This document shows, one piece after another, positions 138-9,864 of a stretch of DNA of 64,000 nucleotides. This DNA is from Escherichia coli (GTDB lineage Bacteria; Pseudomonadota; Gammaproteobacteria; Enterobacterales; Enterobacteriaceae), in NCBI RefSeq assembly GCF_022846255.1, contig NZ_AP025682.1. One strand, written 5' to 3'. A program made the position numbers and the translations under genes. Position 1 is the first letter of the stretch, and each line of letters opens with the position of its first letter. The notes beneath the pieces are model-generated. The model saw only the letters and a list, made by a program, of their open reading frames with translations, was not told where the DNA came from and ran no database searches.

Positions 138-3100
138 ATGATGGAAATTCTGCGTGGTTCGCCTGCATTGTCGGCATTCCGAATCAACAAACTGCTGGCA
201 CGTTTTCAGGCTGCCAGGCTCCTGGTTCACACTATTTACGCCGAGTATGTCCATTTTGCTGACCTCAATGCGCCGTTAAACGATGATGAGCACGCACAAC
301 TTGAACGCCTGCTGAAATATGGCCCGGCACTCGCCAGCCACGCCCCGCAAGGCAAACTCCTGCTGGTGACCCCGCGTCCTGGCACCATCTCTCCCTGGTC
401 TTCGAAAGCGACCGATATTGCCCATAACTGCGGGCTGCAACAGGTAAACCGCCTTGAGCGCGGCGTTGCTTACTATATAGAAGCCGGTACGCTGACCAAT
501 GAACAATGGCAGCAGGTTACCGCTGAACTGCACGACCGCATGATGGAAACGGTCTTTTTTGCTTTAGATGATGCAGAGCAGCTGTTTGCACACCATCAAC
601 CGACTCCGGTCACCAGCGTTGATTTGCTGGGGCAGGGCCGTCAGGCGCTAATCGACGCTAACCTGCGTCTTGGCCTGGCACTGGCGGAAGATGAAATTGA
701 CTATTTGCAGGATGCTTTCACAAAGCTTGGTCGTAACCCGAACGACATCGAACTGTATATGTTTGCCCAGGCGAACTCCGAGCACTGCCGCCACAAAATT
801 TTTAACGCCGACTGGGTTATCGATGGTGAACAGCAGCCGAAATCGCTATTTAAGATGATCAAAAACACCTTCGAAACCACGCCGGATCACGTTCTCTCTG
901 CTTATAAAGATAACGCCGCCGTAATGGAAGGTTCTGAAGTGGGCCGCTACTTTGCTGACCACGAAACGGGCCGCTACGATTTCCATCAGGAACCGGCGCA
1001 TATTCTGATGAAAGTCGAAACTCACAACCACCCGACGGCGATTTCTCCGTGGCCGGGCGCGGCGACCGGTTCCGGCGGTGAAATCCGCGATGAAGGTGCC
1101 ACCGGACGTGGCGCAAAGCCGAAAGCCGGTCTGGTTGGTTTCTCCGTATCCAACCTGCGAATTCCTGGCTTCGAACAGCCGTGGGAAGAAGATTTCGGTA
1201 AACCTGAGCGCATTGTTACCGCGCTGGACATCATGACCGAAGGCCCGCTGGGCGGTGCGGCGTTTAACAACGAATTTGGTCGTCCGGCACTGAACGGCTA
1301 CTTCCGTACTTATGAAGAAAAAGTGAACAGCCACAATGGCGAAGAGCTGCGCGGTTATCACAAACCGATCATGCTGGCGGGTGGGATCGGCAACATTCGC
1401 GCCGATCACGTACAAAAAGGCGAGATCAACGTTGGTGCGAAGCTGGTCGTTCTCGGCGGCCCGGCAATGAACATCGGTCTTGGCGGCGGCGCGGCGTCTT
1501 CCATGGCATCTGGTCAGTCTGATGCCGACCTCGACTTTGCTTCCGTACAGCGCGACAACCCGGAGATGGAGCGTCGCTGCCAGGAAGTGATCGACCGTTG
1601 CTGGCAGCTTGGTGATGCCAACCCAATCCTGTTTATCCACGACGTTGGCGCAGGCGGTCTTTCTAACGCCATGCCGGAACTGGTGAGCGACGGCGGGCGC
1701 GGCGGTAAATTTGAACTGCGCGATATCCTGAGCGACGAACCGGGCATGAGCCCGCTGGAAATCTGGTGTAACGAATCCCAGGAACGCTACGTGCTGGCGG
1801 TTGCTGCCGATCAGTTACCGCTGTTTGACGAACTGTGTAAGCGTGAGCGCGCACCCTACGCGGTGATTGGTGAAGCGACCGAAGAACTGCATCTTTCTTT
1901 GCACGATCGTCATTTTGATAATCAGCCGATTGATCTACCGCTGGACGTACTGCTTGGCAAAACGCCGAAGATGACCCGCGATGTACAAACGCTGAAAGCG
2001 AAAGGCGACGCGCTGGCCCGTGAAGGGATCACCATCGCTGACGCGGTGAAACGCGTGCTGCATCTGCCGACCGTGGCGGAGAAAACTTTCCTGGTGACCA
2101 TCGGTGACCGCAGCGTAACCGGCATGGTGGCGCGCGATCAGATGGTGGGGCCGTGGCAGGTGCCGGTCGCTAACTGCGCGGTCACTACCGCCAGCCTCGA
2201 CAGCTACTATGGCGAAGCGATGGCAATTGGCGAACGTGCGCCAGTTGCGCTGCTGGATTTCGCCGCTTCTGCCCGTCTGGCAGTCGGTGAAGCGCTAACC
2301 AACATCGCCGCAACACAAATTGGCGATATCAAACGCATTAAACTTTCCGCCAACTGGATGGCGGCGGCAGGCCACCCTGGTGAAGATGCTGGCCTGTATG
2401 AAGCCGTTAAAGCTGTGGGTGAAGAACTTTGTCCGGCGCTGGGCCTGACGATACCGGTGGGTAAAGACTCTATGTCGATGAAAACCCGCTGGCAGGAAGG
2501 TAACGAAGAGCGCGAAATGACGTCGCCGTTGTCGCTGGTGATTTCCGCATTTGCCCGCGTGGAAGATGTACGTCACACCATTACGCCGCAGCTTTCTACC
2601 GAAGATAACGCACTGTTGCTGATTGATTTGGGCAAAGGCAATAACGCGCTGGGCGCAACGGCACTGGCGCAGGTTTATCGTCAGCTTGGCGACAAACCGG
2701 CAGATGTACGCGATGTTGCCCAACTGAAAGGTTTCTATGACGCGATTCAGGCACTGGTTGCACAGCGTAAGCTGCTCGCGTACCACGACCGCTCTGACGG
2801 TGGCCTGCTGGTGACGCTGGCGGAAATGGCGTTTGCTGGTCATTGTGGCATTGACGCAGATATCGCCACTCTGGGTGACGATCGTCTGGCTGCATTGTTT
2901 AGCGAAGAACTGGGTGCGGTGATTCAGGTGCGAGCCGCTGACCGTGAAGCCGTTGAAGCGGTACTGGCACAGCATGGGCTTGCTGATTGCGTCCATTATG
3001 TTGGGCAGGCGGTTTCCGGTGACCGTTTTGTGATTACCGCCAACGGGCAGACTGTATTTAGCGAAAGCCGCACCACGTTGCGTGTCTGGTGGGCAGAAAC

Positions 3101-4025
3101 TACCTGGCAGATGCAGCGCCTGCGTGACAACCCGGAGTGTGCCGATCAGGAACATCAGGCGAAATCAAACGACGCCGATCCGGGCCTTAATGTGAAACTG
3201 TCGTTCGATATCAACGAAGATGTGGCAGCACCGTTTATTGCCACTGGCGCGCGTCCGAAAGTTGCTGTGCTGCGTGAGCAGGGCGTGAACTCCCATGTTG
3301 AAATGGCGGCAGCTTTCCACCGTGCAGGCTTCGATGCTATCGACGTGCATATGAGCGATCTGCTGGCTGGACGCACGGGCCTGGAGGGTTTCCACGCCCT
3401 GGTCGCGTGCGGTGGTTTTTCCTACGGTGATGTGCTGGGCGCTGGTGAAGGTTGGGCGAAGTCTATCCTGTTCAATGACCGTGTACGCGATGAGTTTGCA
3501 ACCTTCTTCCATCGTCCGCAAACGCTGGCGCTGGGGGTATGTAACGGTTGCCAGATGATGTCTAATCTGCGTGAACTGATCCCAGGTAGCGAGTTGTGGC
3601 CACGTTTTGTGCGTAACACCTCCGATCGCTTTGAAGCGCGTTTCAGTCTGGTAGAAGTAACCCAAAGCCCGTCGCTGCTGTTGCAGGGGATGGTGGGCTC
3701 GCAGATGCCGATTGCTGTCTCTCACGGTGAAGGGCGCGTTGAAGTGCGCGATGCGGCGCATCTGGCGGCACTGGAAAGCAAAGGGCTGGTGGCACTGCGC
3801 TATGTCGATAACTTCGGCAAAGTCACTGAAACCTACCCGGCTAACCCGAACGGTTCACCGAACGGTATTACGGCGGTCACGACTGAAAGTGGTCGAGTCA
3901 CCATTATGATGCCGCACCCGGAACGAGTTTTCCGTACTGTCAGCAACTCCTGGCATCCGGAAAACTGGGGCGAGGATGGCCCATGGATGCGCATTTTCCG
4001 CAATGCACGTAAGCAGTTGGGGTAA
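138..4025 (+). CDS. purL: phosphoribosylformylglycinamidine synthase (large single-chain FGAM synthase)
   Basis: 1295-aa ORF with N-terminal [20 protein letters not shown] and a C-terminal glutamine amidotransferase domain (GVCNGCQMM); full-length collinear match to enterobacterial PurL from memory. Confidence 0.97.
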
Positions 4026-4128: not shown

Positions 4129-4242
4129 TGTCTGTAAATCACGACAATGGGTGGTTTGCCGTGTCGCTTTTTGGTGACACTTAACTCATTGATTTTAATA
4201 TTATCTAATAAGTTTATCTTAAGTTGTCTCTTTTTAGCGACA
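4129..4242 (+). promoter_or_regulatory. three TGTC-N10-GACA activator sites (GlrR/QseF-type) upstream of glmY
   Basis: TGTCtgtaaatcacGACA 4129-4146, TGTCgctttttggtGACA 4162-4179 and TGTCtctttttagcGACA 4225-4242, all with 10-bp spacers, 90-230 bp upstream of a sigma54 promoter. Confidence 0.6.
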
Positions 4243-4331: not shown

Positions 4332-4351
4332 TGGCACAGTTACTGCATAAT
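4332..4351 (+). promoter_or_regulatory. sigma54 (-24 TGGCAC / -12 CTGCA) promoter overlapping a sigma70 -10 (CATAAT) for glmY
   Basis: TGGCAC at 4332-4337 and CTGCA at 4343-4347 (GG-N10-GC spacing), with CATAAT at 4346-4351, about 8 nt upstream of the glmY 5' end. Confidence 0.65.
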
Positions 4352-4358
4352 AGTAAGC

Positions 4359-4544
4359 AGTGGCTCATTCGCCGACTTATGTCAGCCCCTTCGGGACGTG
4401 CTACATAAAATTCGAATGACGCACAACAAGGTGCCTGCCGTCCAACTTCTGATATCAGCGTAGCTATATCAACCATCGGGCGAAACGTCGAGTTAGGCAC
4501 CGCCTTATTCCATAACAAAGCCGGGTAATTCCCGGCTTTGTTGT
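4359..4544 (+). ncRNA. glmY: GlmY small RNA (regulator of glmS via GlmZ/RapZ)
   Basis: Begins AGTGGCTCATTC..., about 185 nt, ends in AAAGCCGGG-taat-CCCGGCTTT hairpin plus U-run at 4518-4544; sits immediately upstream of glrK as in K-12; no credible ORF. Confidence 0.8.
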
Positions 4545-4600
4545 ATCTGAACTTCCCCTCGGTTAGCATCAGGCTATTCGCGTCTGACGAGAGTAACGCC

Positions 4601-6028
4601 TTGAAACGCTGGCCCGTTTTTCCCCGCTCATTACGACAACTGGTAATGCTGGCATTTTTGCTGATTCTGCTGCCCCTGTTGGTGCTGGCATGGCAAGCCT
4701 GGCAAAGCCTGAATGCACTTAGCGATCAGGCGGCGCTGGTTAACCGCACTACGCTTATTGATGCCCGGCGCAGTGAAGCGATGACCAACGCGGCACTGGA
4801 GATGGAGCGCAGCTATCGTCAGTACTGCGTGCTGGACGACCCTACGCTTGCGAAGGTTTATCAAAGCCAGCGCAAGCGTTACAGCGAAATGCTCGATGCC
4901 CACGCAGGCGTGCTGCCGGACGATAAACTCTACCAGGCATTACGTCAGGATTTGAACAATCTGGCTCAACTTCAGTGTAACAACAGCGGTCCCGATGCTG
5001 CTGCCGCCGCGCGTCTGGAAGCCTTTGCCAGTGCCAATACCGAAATGGTGCAGGCCACGCGCACAGTGGTGTTCTCTCGTGGGCAGCAACTTCAGCGTGA
5101 AATCGCCGAACGTGGGCAATATTTTGGTTGGCAATCGCTGGTGCTATTTCTGGTGAGTCTGGTGATGGTACTGCTTTTCACGAGGATGATTATCGGTCCG
5201 GTGAAAAATATCGAGCGCATGATCAACCGGCTGGGGGAAGGGCGTTCTCTGGGCAATAGCGTCTCGTTCAGTGGACCGAGCGAGTTACGCTCGGTTGGGC
5301 AACGTATTCTTTGGTTAAGTGAGCGCCTGTCATGGCTGGAATCCCAACGCCATCAATTTTTAAGACATTTATCTCATGAATTAAAAACGCCACTGGCGAG
5401 TATGCGCGAGGGCACTGAATTACTGGCTGATCAGGTTGTCGGGCCGCTTACGCCAGAGCAAAAAGAGGTGGTGAGCATTCTTGATAGCAGCAGCCGCAAT
5501 TTGCAAAAGCTGATCGAACAACTGCTTGATTACAACCGTAAACAGGCGGACAGTGCGGTGGAACTGGAGAATGTTGAGTTAGCACCGCTGGTGGAGACAG
5601 TGGTTTCTGCTCATAGCCTGCCCGCACGGGCTAAAATGATGCATACCGACGTTGATCTCAAAGCAACAGCTTGCCTGGCGGAGCCAATGCTGCTGATGAG
5701 CGTACTGGATAATCTTTACTCCAATGCGGTGCACTACGGGGCTGAATCCGGTAACATTTGCCTTCGCAGCAGTTTACATGGTGCGCGGGTTTATATTGAT
5801 GTCATCAATACAGGCACGCCCATTCCGCAAGAGGAACGCGCCATGATCTTCGAACCCTTTTTTCAGGGAAGCCACCAGCGAAAAGGGGCGGTGAAGGGCA
5901 GCGGTCTGGGATTAAGCATTGCCAGGGATTGTATTCGCCGTATGCAAGGGGAACTGTATCTGGTCGACGAGAGCGGGCAAGACGTTTGTTTCCGCATTGA
6001 ATTACCGTCGTCGAAAAACACGAAATAA
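4601..6028 (+). CDS. glrK: sensor histidine kinase GlrK/QseE
   Basis: N-terminal TM segment, HAMP region, H-box SHELKTPL and HATPase motifs; start placed at TTG 4601 (MKRWPVFPRS...) rather than the upstream ATG 4538 of the ORF track, to match the known N-terminus. Confidence 0.88.
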   Translation: MKRWPVFPRSLRQLVMLAFLLILLPLLVLAWQAWQSLNALSDQAALVNRTTLIDARRSEAMTNAALEMERSYRQYCVLDDPTLAKVYQSQRKRYSEMLDAHAGVLPDDKLYQALRQDLNNLAQLQCNNSGPDAAAAARLEAFASANTEMVQATRTVVFSRGQQLQREIAERGQYFGWQSLVLFLVSLVMVLLFTRMIIGPVKNIERMINRLGEGRSLGNSVSFSGPSELRSVGQRILWLSERLSWLESQRHQFLRHLSHELKTPLASMREGTELLADQVVGPLTPEQKEVVSILDSSSRNLQKLIEQLLDYNRKQADSAVELENVELAPLVETVVSAHSLPARAKMMHTDVDLKATACLAEPMLLMSVLDNLYSNAVHYGAESGNICLRSSLHGARVYIDVINTGTPIPQEERAMIFEPFFQGSHQRKGAVKGSGLGLSIARDCIRRMQGELYLVDESGQDVCFRIELPSSKNTK

Positions 6029-6192
6029 TGCTAACAGCCCATCCCATCAGGCTATTTTATTTGTCAGTTCGGCCCCGGGCAGTGCTCGAAATCTTCACGT
6101 ACGACATGTACGCTCCGGTTTCTCCGCGCTGTCCATGTCCAAACTGCCTGCAACAATTACGCCCACTGGGATAGGCTTTAAGTCTGGTGAAT

Positions 6193-6906
6193 ATGCGACA
6201 CATTTTTCAACGATTATTGCCCCGACGGCTGTGGCTGGCAGGGCTGCCATGTCTGGCATTGCTGGGTTGCGTGCAGAGTCACAATAGGCCAGCCATTGAT
6301 ACGCCAGCAGAAGAAAAAATTCCGGTTTATCAACTGGCTGACTATCTTTCTACTGAATGTAGCGACATCTGGGCGCTGCAAGGTAAATCTACCGAAACCA
6401 ATCCGCTTTACTGGCTGCGGGCGATGGATTGTGCTGATCGTTTAATGCCTGCGCAGTCGCGTCAGCAAGCCCGCCAATATGACGACGGCAACTGGCAAAA
6501 TACCTTTAAACAAGGGATTTTGCTCGCCGACGCCAAAATTACTCCGTATGAGCGCCGCCAGCTGGTCGCGCGCATTGATGCGCTAAGTACCGAGATCCCG
6601 GCACAGGTTCGCCCACTGTATCAACTTTGGCGCGACGGTCAGGCGCTGCAACTGCAACTGGCGGAAGAGCGCCAACGCTACAGCAAACTCCAGCAGTCCA
6701 GCGACAGCGAGCTGGATACTTTGCGCCAGCAACATCACGTTCTACAACAGCAACTGGAACTCACTACCCGCAAGCTGGAAAACCTGACCGATATTGAACG
6801 CCAGCTCTCGACCCGCAAACCGGCCGGAAATTTCTCGCCGGATACGCCGCACGAGAGTGAAAAGCCCGCGCCATCCACCGATGAGGTCACTCCTGATGAG
6901 CCATAA
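6193..6906 (+). CDS. qseG: outer-membrane lipoprotein QseG/GlrP (accessory component of the GlrK-GlrR system)
   Basis: Signal peptide with lipobox LLGC, coiled-coil-rich C-terminus; lies between glrK and glrR. Confidence 0.85.
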   Translation: MRHIFQRLLPRRLWLAGLPCLALLGCVQSHNRPAIDTPAEEKIPVYQLADYLSTECSDIWALQGKSTETNPLYWLRAMDCADRLMPAQSRQQARQYDDGNWQNTFKQGILLADAKITPYERRQLVARIDALSTEIPAQVRPLYQLWRDGQALQLQLAEERQRYSKLQQSSDSELDTLRQQHHVLQQQLELTTRKLENLTDIERQLSTRKPAGNFSPDTPHESEKPAPSTDEVTPDEP

Positions 6907-8230
6907 ACCTGCGCATTTATTACTGGTCGATGACGATCCGGGATTGCTGAAACTGCTTGGCCTGCGCCTGACCAGCGAAGGCTACAGTGTGGTCACGGCG
7001 GAAAGTGGTGCTGAAGGATTGCGGGTACTGAATCGCGAAAAAGTAGATTTAGTCATCAGCGACCTGCGGATGGATGAAATGGACGGTATGCAGCTGTTTG
7101 CTGAAATCCAGAAAGTGCAGCCGGGAATGCCAGTAATTATTCTTACCGCGCATGGTTCTATTCCTGATGCCGTTGCTGCAACACAGCAGGGCGTGTTCAG
7201 TTTTCTCACCAAGCCTGTCGATAAAGATGCGCTATATCAGGCAATTGACGATGCGCTGGAACAATCCGCGCCAGCCACCGACGAACGTTGGCGCGAGGCG
7301 ATTGTCACCCGCAGCCCGCTGATGCTGCGCTTGCTGGAACAGGCGCGGCTGGTGGCACAATCAGACGTTAGCGTTTTGATTAACGGCCAGAGCGGCACCG
7401 GGAAAGAGATTTTCGCCCAGGCTATCCACAACGCCAGCCCGCGCAACAGCAAGCCATTTATTGCTATTAACTGTGGCGCATTACCCGAGCAATTGCTGGA
7501 GTCGGAGCTGTTTGGTCATGCACGTGGCGCGTTTACTGGCGCTGTCAGCAATCGCGAAGGTTTATTCCAGGCGGCGGAAGGCGGTACGCTATTTCTTGAT
7601 GAGATTGGCGATATGCCTGCACCGTTGCAGGTCAAACTGCTGCGCGTGTTGCAGGAGCGTAAAGTGCGCCCGCTGGGCAGTAACCGCGATATTGATATCG
7701 ACGTGCGGATTATTTCTGCGACCCACCGCGACCTGCCAAAAGCGATGGCGCGTGGGGAATTCCGTGAAGATCTTTATTACCGCCTCAATGTTGTCAGCCT
7801 GAAAATTCCGGCACTGGCGGAGCGCACAGAAGACATTCCGCTACTGGCAAATCACCTGTTGCGCCAGGCGGCAGAGCGACATAAACCGTTTGTCCGCGCG
7901 TTCTCCACCGATGCAATGAAACGCCTGATGACTGCGAGCTGGCCGGGCAACGTGCGCCAGTTGGTCAACGTGATTGAACAGTGCGTGGCGCTGACATCAT
8001 CTCCGGTAATTAGTGATGCGCTGGTGGAGCAGGCGCTGGAGGGCGAAAACACGGCGCTGCCAACCTTTGTTGAGGCGCGTAATCAGTTTGAACTCAACTA
8101 TTTGCGTAAGCTGCTGCAAATCACCAAAGGCAACGTCACCCACGCGGCGAGAATGGCGGGGCGCAACCGGACAGAATTTTATAAACTGCTTTCCCGACAC
8201 GAACTGGATGCAAACGATTTCAAGGAATGA
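6896..8230 (+). CDS. glrR: sigma54-dependent response regulator GlrR/QseF
   Basis: Receiver domain (LLVDDDPGLL), AAA+ sigma54-activation domain with Walker A GQSGTGKE and the GAFTGA motif, C-terminal HTH; ATG at 6896 overlaps the qseG stop by 11 nt. Confidence 0.92.
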   Translation: MSHKPAHLLLVDDDPGLLKLLGLRLTSEGYSVVTAESGAEGLRVLNREKVDLVISDLRMDEMDGMQLFAEIQKVQPGMPVIILTAHGSIPDAVAATQQGVFSFLTKPVDKDALYQAIDDALEQSAPATDERWREAIVTRSPLMLRLLEQARLVAQSDVSVLINGQSGTGKEIFAQAIHNASPRNSKPFIAINCGALPEQLLESELFGHARGAFTGAVSNREGLFQAAEGGTLFLDEIGDMPAPLQVKLLRVLQERKVRPLGSNRDIDIDVRIISATHRDLPKAMARGEFREDLYYRLNVVSLKIPALAERTEDIPLLANHLLRQAAERHKPFVRAFSTDAMKRLMTASWPGNVRQLVNVIEQCVALTSSPVISDALVEQALEGENTALPTFVEARNQFELNYLRKLLQITKGNVTHAARMAGRNRTEFYKLLSRHELDANDFKE

Positions 8231-8254
8231 ATTGGCGTTATGTGTTACGTTTAG

Positions 8255-8629
<375 letters not shown>

Positions 8630-8673: not shown

Positions 8674-9864
8674 TCACAGCACCTTATGCGGGCCAAAGCA
8701 TTCGTAATGAATGTTTTCCTGTTTCACGCCCAGATCCACTAACTGTTTCGCGGCAAACTGCATGAAGCCAACCGGGCCGCAGAGATAGAACTGCATTGTC
8801 GGATCGCTGAACGCACCTTCCAGTTTGCTCAAATCCATCAGACCTTCGCTATCAAACTGACCTTTAGCGCGATCGGCTTCGCTCGGCTGACGATACCAGG
8901 TGTGTGCGGTAAAGCGTGGCAGTGATTGACCCAGTTCCTTAACTTCATCGGCAAAGGCGTGAACATTGCCATTTTCTGCCGCATGGAACCAGTTCACTTG
9001 TGCTGTGTGGCCTGCTTTTGCCAGCGTGTCGAGCATTGCCAGCATTGGCGTTTGACCGACACCGGCAGAGATTAACGTCACTGGTGTGTCATCTGCGACA
9101 GCCATAAAGAAATCACCTGCCGGAGCGACCAGTTTCACGACATCGCCAACATTGGCGTGATTGTGCAGCCAGTTGGATACCTGCCCGCCATCTTCGCGTT
9201 TCACCGCAATACGATAGCCTTTGCCATCCGGTTTGCGAGTCAAAGAGTACTGACGAATTTCCTGATGCGGGAAACCTTCCGGCTTCAGCCAGACGCCGAG
9301 ATATTGCCCCGGACGGTATTCTGCCACTGCGCCACCGTCGACCGGCTCCAGTTCGAAGCTGGTGATAAGCGCGCTGCGCGGTGTTTTAGCCACAATGCGG
9401 AAATCGCGAGTACCTTCCCAACCACCGGCTTTGCTGGCGTTTTCGTTATAGATTTCCGCCTCGCGATTGATAAATACATTAGCCAGGACGCCATAGGCTT
9501 TACCCCACGCGTCCAGCACTTCCTGCCCCGGGCTGAACATTTCGTCCAGCGTTGCCAACAGGTGTTCACCGACGATGTTGTACTGTTCCGGTTTGATCTG
9601 GAAACTGGTGTGCTTCTGCGCGATTTTTTCTACCGCTGGCAGCAGCGCAGGCAGGTTTTCAATATTGCTGGCGTAGGCGGCAATAGCGTTAAACAGGGCT
9701 TCACGTTGATCGCCATTACGCTGGTTACTCATGTTAAAAATTTCTTTGAGTTCTGGGTTATGAGTAAACATACGGTCGTAGAAATGGGCGGTTAACTTTG
9801 GTCCCGTTTCCACCAGTAAAGGGATGGTGGCTTTTACTGTAGCGATGGTTTGAGCGTCAAGCAT
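8674..9864 (-). CDS. hmp: flavohemoglobin / nitric oxide dioxygenase
   Basis: 396 aa; N-terminal globin domain ([17 protein letters not shown]) fused to FAD/NAD(P)H ferredoxin-reductase-like domain. Confidence 0.96.

Follow-up and report, generated by a model that had tools for sequence, protein, structure and literature searches.

The window analysed here is a stretch of 64,000 nucleotides of Escherichia coli chromosomal DNA, and the part of interest carries the known E. coli locus glmY-glrK(qseE)-qseG-glrR(qseF)-glnB, flanked by purL and hmp (Table 1). Of 5426 complete E. coli genomes, 5425 carry positions 4400-8300 at an identity of at least 95%. The original prediction, made from the letters alone, had named a kinase, a lipoprotein and a response regulator in the order glrK, qseG and glrR, and both the order and the identities are borne out by domain and family matches and by RefSeq mapping. 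The annotation of a 99.8%-identical genome (STEC299) maps to qseE at 4601-6028, qseG at 6193-6906 and glrR at 6896-8230. QseG matches PF13942 with 270.2 bits (cut-off 27) and the NCBIfam equivalog model NF007997 with 358.5 bits (cut-off 234). GlrR matches the equivalog model NF011695 with 982.3 bits (cut-off 763), aligned over residues 1-444, and contains the domains Response_reg (from residue 9), Sigma54_activat and AAA_lid_14. The kinase encoded upstream of qseG contains HAMP, HisKA and HATPase_c domains; no NCBIfam equivalog model scored above its cut-off for this protein, the best being CreC with 140.9 bits against 356. The name QseE/GlrK thus rests on near-identity and synteny, the kinase DNA being 99.8% identical to that of a genome in which the gene is annotated as QseE/GlrK. 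The three genes are consecutive, as had been proposed, but glrK does not adjoin qseG, from which it is separated by a spacer of 164 nt.

Table 1. Coordinates of the genes, control sites and candidate start codons at the locus (positions in the window)
Feature	Position	Strand	Basis or remark
purL	138-4025
TGT-N12-ACA site, GlrR/QseF upstream activating sequence of glmY	4129-4146	+	pattern search
TGT-N12-ACA site, GlrR/QseF upstream activating sequence of glmY	4162-4179	+	pattern search
TGT-N12-ACA site, GlrR/QseF upstream activating sequence of glmY	4225-4242	+	pattern search
glmY sigma-54 promoter, TGGCAC-N5-CTGCA	4332-4347	+	1 mismatch to consensus
glmY sRNA gene, GlrR target	4359-4542	+	Rfam RF00128 and mapped K-12 annotation
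glrK/qseE sensor histidine kinase	4601-6028	+	RefSeq coordinates; HAMP, HisKA, HATPase_c; TTG start
glrK-qseG spacer (164 nt)	6029-6192	+	almost all ~147-bp imperfect-palindrome repeat
qseG (yfhG) outer-membrane lipoprotein gene	6193-6906	+	RefSeq, PF13942, NF007997
qseG signal peptide	6193-6267	+
QseG lipobox LLGC	6259-6270	+
QseG lipidated Cys26	6268-6270	+
glrR-frame candidate start TTG	6794		relative codon -33
glrR-frame candidate start GTG	6857		relative codon -12
glrR-frame candidate start ATG	6881		relative codon -4
glrR Shine-Dalgarno GAGGT	6883-6887	+	anti-SD duplex -6.3 kcal/mol
glrR-frame candidate start ATG	6896		relative codon 1
qseG/glrR overlap ATGAGCCATAA	6896-6906	+	11 nt, glrR start codon to qseG stop codon
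glrR/qseF sigma-54-dependent response regulator	6896-8230	+	NF011695
glrR-frame candidate start TTG	6944		relative codon 17
glnB (PII)	8291-8629	+	conserved downstream neighbour
hmp	8674-9864	opposite

The description of these genes as a three-component signalling unit agrees with how QseE/QseG/QseF are presented in the literature (PMC6075780, PMC12691602), where QseG is reported to bind QseE and to be needed for phosphorylation of QseF; the QseG-QseE complex has been solved by cryo-EM (PMC12691602). The operon status of glrK-qseG-glrR is taken from PMC6075780. No promoter-like or terminator-like site was found on the + strand within 6029-8230, and the spacer holds no sigma-70-like site on that strand that could serve as an internal promoter, a possibility raised by Göpel & Görke as a hypothesis only. 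The kinase gene starts with TTG (4601-4603) behind a weak Shine-Dalgarno (SD) sequence with a duplex of -3.4 kcal/mol, and this combination fits the kinase being undetectable in a proteomics study, as cited by PMC6075780. The SD of qseG is likewise weak, at -3.3 kcal/mol for ATG 6193 and -4.8 kcal/mol for GTG 6187. The latter codon had been taken as the qseG start and has to give way to the curated ATG two codons further on; the mature protein is identical either way.

Upstream of the kinase gene, RF00128 matches glmY with 143.6 bits (gathering score 33) over 4359-4506. Three upstream activating sequences with a TGT-N12-ACA consensus have been described (PMC6075780), and three sites of this pattern lie within 114 nt just upstream of glmY. 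The number of such sites across the window is at chance level (14 found, 15 expected); the informative part is their clustering only. The sigma-54 promoter ends 12 nt before the 5' end of glmY. The three sites and the sigma-54 promoter in front of glmY match the published regulatory architecture (PMC6075780).

The lipoprotein assignment of QseG is confirmed by a lipobox, L-L-G-C, at residues 23-26, which follows a basic n-region MRHIFQRLLPRR and a hydrophobic core. The N-terminus reads MRHIFQRLLPRRLWLAGLPCLA-LLGC-VQS, and the +2 residue is Val and not Asp. The signal peptide and lipobox were judged from the motif [LVI][ASTVIL][GAS]C and from alignment: Cys26 is invariant among 16 aligned QseG homologues, and a lipobox precedes the aligned Cys in every locus scanned, LAGC being the commonest form. 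In most Enterobacteriaceae (loci L016, L022, L037 and others), a second qseG ATG lies upstream and overlaps the glrK stop as ATGA, giving an N-terminal extension that begins MNLSLVS-M-S-H. This extension accounts for the numbering of the lipidated Cys as residue 37 in work on Salmonella. In E. coli (6175-6195), the upstream qseG ATG has been cut off by an insertion and by TAG 6172-6174, which leaves ATG 6193 or GTG 6187.

At its other end, QseG carries an acidic tail beyond its Pfam domain, which ends at residue 217. The solved structures 7x6f, 9m06 and 9m08 cover residues 33-210, a Salmonella QseG construct of residues 37-221 still binds QseE (PMC12691602), and the homologue alignment finds the tail rich in indels except for its last ~5 codons, (Q)E(D/E)V(K/T)P. 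On the strength of the structures ending near residue 210, the Salmonella binding and the indels, the acidic tail is dispensable. The Glu and Asp codons of the tail (GAG GAT, GAG GTn) spell the SD of glrR, and since they do so, conservation of the extreme C-terminus would be best explained at the nucleotide level.

The spacer between glrK and qseG consists almost entirely of a ~147-bp repeat, for which an RNA fold of -54.7 kcal/mol (z = -3.5) is predicted. Copies of this repeat number a median of 5 per E. coli genome, with 6 in K-12. At this junction it is present in four E. coli-like loci (L001-L004); E. albertii, the L006 lineage and most other genera lack it. The alignment places its insertion exactly at the ancestral junction of the glrK stop and the qseG start, and in many repeat-free genera the glrK stop overlaps the upstream qseG ATG as ATGA or TAATG. 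The repeat ends resemble inverted repeats, AGCC(C/T)ATCCCA and TGGGATAGGCT, with TAA on both flanks. The element resembles the "RSA" repeats, a family of 152 bp with 6 copies in K-12, and may belong to them. Nothing is annotated at the spacer repeat in K-12 MG1655, and our literature search confirmed no published name for it. Other names were tried and set aside: the repeat matches neither the RU-2 and RU-3 sequences printed by Delihas nor the ERIC/RU-1 consensus. The Rfam matches within the spacer, sX9 (32.3 bits against a gathering score of 44) and isrL (16.6 against 35), fall below threshold and were taken as chance. A 48-codon open reading frame (6028-6174) begins at the ATG of a TAATG that overlaps the glrK stop, the former upstream qseG start. 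It crosses the palindromic element and ends with TAG 18 nt before the qseG ATG, and in E. whittamii (L004) the equivalent frame runs in frame into qseG. That this reading frame could relay ribosomes from glrK to qseG is pure speculation.

At the junction of qseG and glrR, the two genes overlap. The original prediction had placed the glrR ATG 11 nt inside the qseG frame, and direct reading agrees: the glrR ATG occupies 6896-6898, the qseG-frame stop TAA occupies 6904-6906, and 11 nt are common to both. The junction reads ...GAT GAG GTC ACT CCT GAT GAG CCA TAA, the overlap being the last 11 bases. The two genes share the same 11 nt in K-12 MG1655 (qseG 2688793-2689506, glrR 2687469-2688803), and the overlap is also annotated in the three other E. 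coli genomes that were read (STEC299 and two junction variants of 94% and 98%). A 50-nt probe of the junction found one match per genome in all but one of the 5426 complete E. coli genomes (5425). At this operon junction, the overlap is real and fixed, of an ordinary kind, and annotated already. Gene overlap as such is not unusual, as about a quarter of co-directional gene pairs in E. coli lie within -8 to +6 nt of each other, and among longer overlaps the phase of -8, -11 and -14 is enriched genome-wide (PMC10666635). The overlap lengths of 8, 11 and 14 nt found among qseG/glrR junctions match this enriched phase.

The position of the overlap depends on the glrR start codon, for which five candidates exist in frame (Table 1). 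ATG 6896 is preceded by GAGGT at a distance of 8 nt, within codons of the acidic tail of QseG, and the anti-SD duplex there is stronger than that of every other 17-nt stretch of the qseG body. This SD is conserved, with a median of -6.9 kcal/mol over 89 loci, and an ATG is found at the position equivalent to 6896 or one codon upstream in 88 of the 89, that is, in all loci with a callable start. The alternative is that glrR starts elsewhere, either at the upstream ATG 6881, which would give a 26-nt overlap, or at a downstream codon that does not overlap qseG. ATG 6881 is indeed in frame with no intervening stops, and TTG 6944 and several CTG codons lie downstream. However, ATG 6881 is without an SD (-0.1 kcal/mol) and occurs only in Escherichia, and was rejected. 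A non-overlapping downstream start had been named as the finding that would overturn the predicted overlap, and it does not hold up: the first canonical in-frame codon is TTG 6944, codon 17, and starting there would delete beta-1 and D12-D14 of the GlrR receiver domain. D12-D14 form the acidic pocket of CheY-like receivers. No non-overlapping start gives an intact receiver, because the Pfam match begins at residue 9 and D12-D14 precede codon 17. Given also that the GlrR equivalog model of NCBIfam covers the protein from residue 1 and that 6896 is used by all curated annotations, a start elsewhere is exceedingly improbable, and we keep to ATG 6896.

A comparison of the overlap across enterobacteria had been suggested with the original prediction. 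To make it, 16 QseG homologues were aligned and one locus was then fetched per species, for 80 Enterobacteriaceae species. The overlap is kept in 79 of the 80, with variable geometry. A 4-nt overlap, ATGA, is the commonest form (51 of 80 species), followed by a 14-nt form, ATGACGAxCCGTAA, in the 15 species of Klebsiella/Raoultella, part of Enterobacter and Superficieibacter. A 1-nt overlap, TAATG, occurs in 7 species, three of which are ambiguous as ATGATG, and an 8-nt overlap is found once, in Kluyvera. The 11-nt form of E. coli belongs to the five Escherichia species only (5 of 80). The one species out of 80 with no overlap is Leclercia adecarboxylata NCTC13032 (L035), in which the qseG-frame stop lies 42 nt before the glrR ATG. 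It is the sole Enterobacteriaceae locus with an early qseG stop (~3590-3680 of that locus), which is either a true truncation of the tail or an assembly indel.

Beyond the family, eight distant QseG lineages (27-48% identity) were collected by a representative search and contig look-ups. Their junctions show overlaps of 4, 4, 4, 4, 11 and 41 nt and gaps of 1 and 2 nt, and all eight keep the order purL-kinase-qseG-regulator. Seven of the eight distant loci have glnB downstream; L088 has another gene there, and the contig of L089 ends inside the regulator gene. L089 (GCA_051645985.1), with a QseG of 27% identity, is also the locus with the 41-nt overlap (3267-3307; gene call and script), the only long overlap seen. 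Altogether, orthologous junctions span -14 to +2 nt with two exceptions.

The alignment of these junctions suggests how the forms relate to one another. Every 8-, 11- or 14-nt form is without one base directly before the ATG, relative to GCCATGA, and ATGA at the glrR start is retained in 86 of 88 loci. The -11 junction and the ATGA (-4) junction differ by one base, CCTGATG against CCATGATG. The 11-nt geometry thus looks like an Escherichia-specific derivative of an ancestral 4-nt ATGA through a 1-nt deletion before the start, with the direction of change inferred from counts and alignment and not from a rooted phylogeny. Such a deletion would have shifted the qseG frame off its TGA and on to the next out-of-frame stop. 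In E. coli, the change would have run from CCATGATGAGC, a form present in some Citrobacter and corresponding to the ATGATG/ATGA ancestor, to CCTGATGAGC; the first ATG and the in-frame TGA would have been lost, so that qseG would end at the TAA in glrR codons 3-4 (CAT AAA). This is a small, tidy example of a junction whose geometry drifts by single-base indels while the junction itself stays tight, as each 1-nt deletion that leads to an 8-, 11- or 14-nt form lands on a nearby out-of-frame stop.

The original prediction had read the overlap as implying translational coupling of the lipoprotein and the response regulator. Our literature search found no experiment on the qseG/glrR junction, and coupling there is undiscussed in PMC6075780 and PMC12691602, the word "translational" being absent from both main texts. 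We consider it fairly probable that coupling is partial and is added to SD-driven initiation of glrR, meaning that translation of qseG helps and is not strictly required. In such a scheme, glrR is translated from ATG 6896, where GAGGT 6883-6887 positions the ribosomes. Ribosomes that finish qseG could plausibly reinitiate at glrR, because they reach the qseG stop a mere 8 nt beyond the glrR start. Reinitiation is favoured by distances of -8 to +10 nt (PMC10666635, PMC6728339); the 11-nt overlap falls just outside this range, which Huber et al. treat as predictive.

Coupling could also be strict, GlrR being made only by ribosomes that have just terminated on qseG, which would tie the output of regulator and lipoprotein. 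After at least ~7 apparent changes of geometry, 79 of the 80 Enterobacteriaceae species still have an overlap, and no spacer ever evolved there, in contrast to the glrK/qseG junction, which accepted a 147-bp insertion. All lineages with a shifted frame have short overlaps (8-14 nt), and the same shift would give at least 35 nt in ~48% of the ATGA-type species; the rough odds of all overlaps being short are 0.52^7, or ~0.01, with the events counted by eye. In published tests, 13 of 14 overlapping pairs were strictly coupled, 4 of 5 in E. coli, and an SD often assisted reinitiation (PMC6728339). Nevertheless, we think strict coupling unlikely. The RNA structures that Huber et al. invoke for strict coupling in E. 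coli (PMC6728339) have no counterpart here: the region 6846-6945 shows no masking structure, its minimum free energy of -21.7 kcal/mol being no lower than the mean of shuffled sequences (-23.3; z = +0.49), and 130 of 200 shuffles are at least as stable. An RNA structure occluding the glrR start was rejected on this z value, and nothing of this kind blocks de novo initiation locally. The SD of glrR is well placed and the strongest in the gene. A global proteomics study, as cited by Göpel & Görke, gives ~36 QseF and ~11 QseG molecules per cell, or about three times as much QseF as QseG, these being the numbers of one study, near detection limits, in which lipoproteins may be under-counted. QseG resides in the periplasm at the outer membrane and GlrR in the cytoplasm, and the two do not assemble together; because they occupy different compartments, the rationale of a stoichiometric complex (PMC10666635) is missing.

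Further evidence against strict coupling comes from a strain in which the two genes were separated. The chromosomal QseG-3xFLAG allele of Göpel & Görke (primers BG1305 and BG1306) places a tag and an FRT scar between the genes, so that qseF sits behind the AGGAGG ribosome-binding site (RBS) of the cassette, and full activation of glmY is kept. The system still works with the genes apart and a synthetic RBS in place. This RBS is a strong one. From the strain it follows that coupling can be done without once something replaces it, not that the wild type lacks it.

At the other extreme, the overlap would be a neutral by-product of compaction and a small indel, without functional coupling, and glrR would be translated purely de novo. 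Its own conserved SD and the lack of a masking structure would suit such independence, and so would the free drift of the geometry among 1, 4, 8, 11 and 14 nt. Moreover, qseG is translated weakly (SD of -3.3 kcal/mol; ~11 molecules per cell in the proteomics data as cited by Göpel & Görke), and few terminating ribosomes would therefore be available. The pair bioBF documents that overlapping genes in E. coli may lack coupling (PMC6728339). This reading seems rather improbable to us all the same, given that overlap or abutment is nearly universal even at ~27-48% QseG identity, that junctions of this type have a high base rate of coupling, and that partial coupling was observed even in synthetic pairs spaced by 50 nt (PMC6728339). 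Partial coupling on top of SD-driven initiation is thus the reading that we prefer.

A bolder proposal can be built on the same data, namely that selection holds the qseG stop near the glrR start since coupling sets the ratio of the two products, and that the repeat broke an ancestral chain of ATGA junctions. If true, the junction would have survived at least ~7 independent indel or substitution events without opening, and coupling would set the lipoprotein-to-regulator ratio. The ancestor would have been chained as glrK-ATGA-qseG-ATGA-glrR, and the palindromic mobile repeat of E. coli would have broken the first link. Synthesis of QseG would then be uncoupled from that of the kinase, which could contribute to QseG being a limiting component. 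We regard this proposal as doubtful.

The junction can be set beside the termination-reinitiation pairs of the ATGA/TGATG type (Huber et al. 2019, 2023). Both involve co-directional genes on one operon transcript, with the stop only a few nt away from the start of the downstream gene and the SD inside the upstream gene, and the orthologous qseG/glrR junctions are mostly of the canonical ATGA form. Unlike those pairs, the E. coli junction has the rarer -11 form instead of -4, -1 or -8, QseG and GlrR are not subunits of one complex, and no blocking RNA structure is predicted. Short stop/start overlaps are among the commonest operon features of bacteria. A second comparison concerns the position of the lipoprotein gene. 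The genes nlpE and rcsF are not known to be encoded inside the operons of their kinases and regulators, whereas qseG is flanked by the kinase gene and the regulator gene and overlaps the latter. QseG is otherwise like NlpE with CpxA and RcsF with RcsCDB, in that an outer-membrane lipoprotein modulates an inner-membrane histidine kinase (comparison in PMC12691602).

The genes are the same as those of QseE/QseG/QseF (GlrK/YfhG/GlrR) in E. coli K-12, EHEC and Salmonella, and 5425 E. coli genomes match the window at 95-99.8% identity. The operon, its lipoprotein cofactor and the overlap have all been described or annotated before, and the observation matters little beyond good annotation. What is added here includes the cross-species geometry of the junction. 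One practical caution concerns engineering: because the SD and start codon of glrR lie in the last ~25 nt of qseG, a C-terminal tag, a deletion or a changed stop codon in qseG will alter glrR expression unless the junction is rebuilt, as Göpel & Görke did.

With respect to QseEGF of K-12, there is no difference at the level of the system, and only a few SNPs distinguish the window. Among the 5425 genomes matched by the 50-nt junction probe, 3993 differ from the window by about one base. One such polymorphism is at position 6880, adjoining the glrR SD, where the window has G (GAT, Asp in QseG) and K-12 and most genomes have C (CAT, His). Despite this polymorphism, the overlap is unchanged in the junction variants that were inspected.
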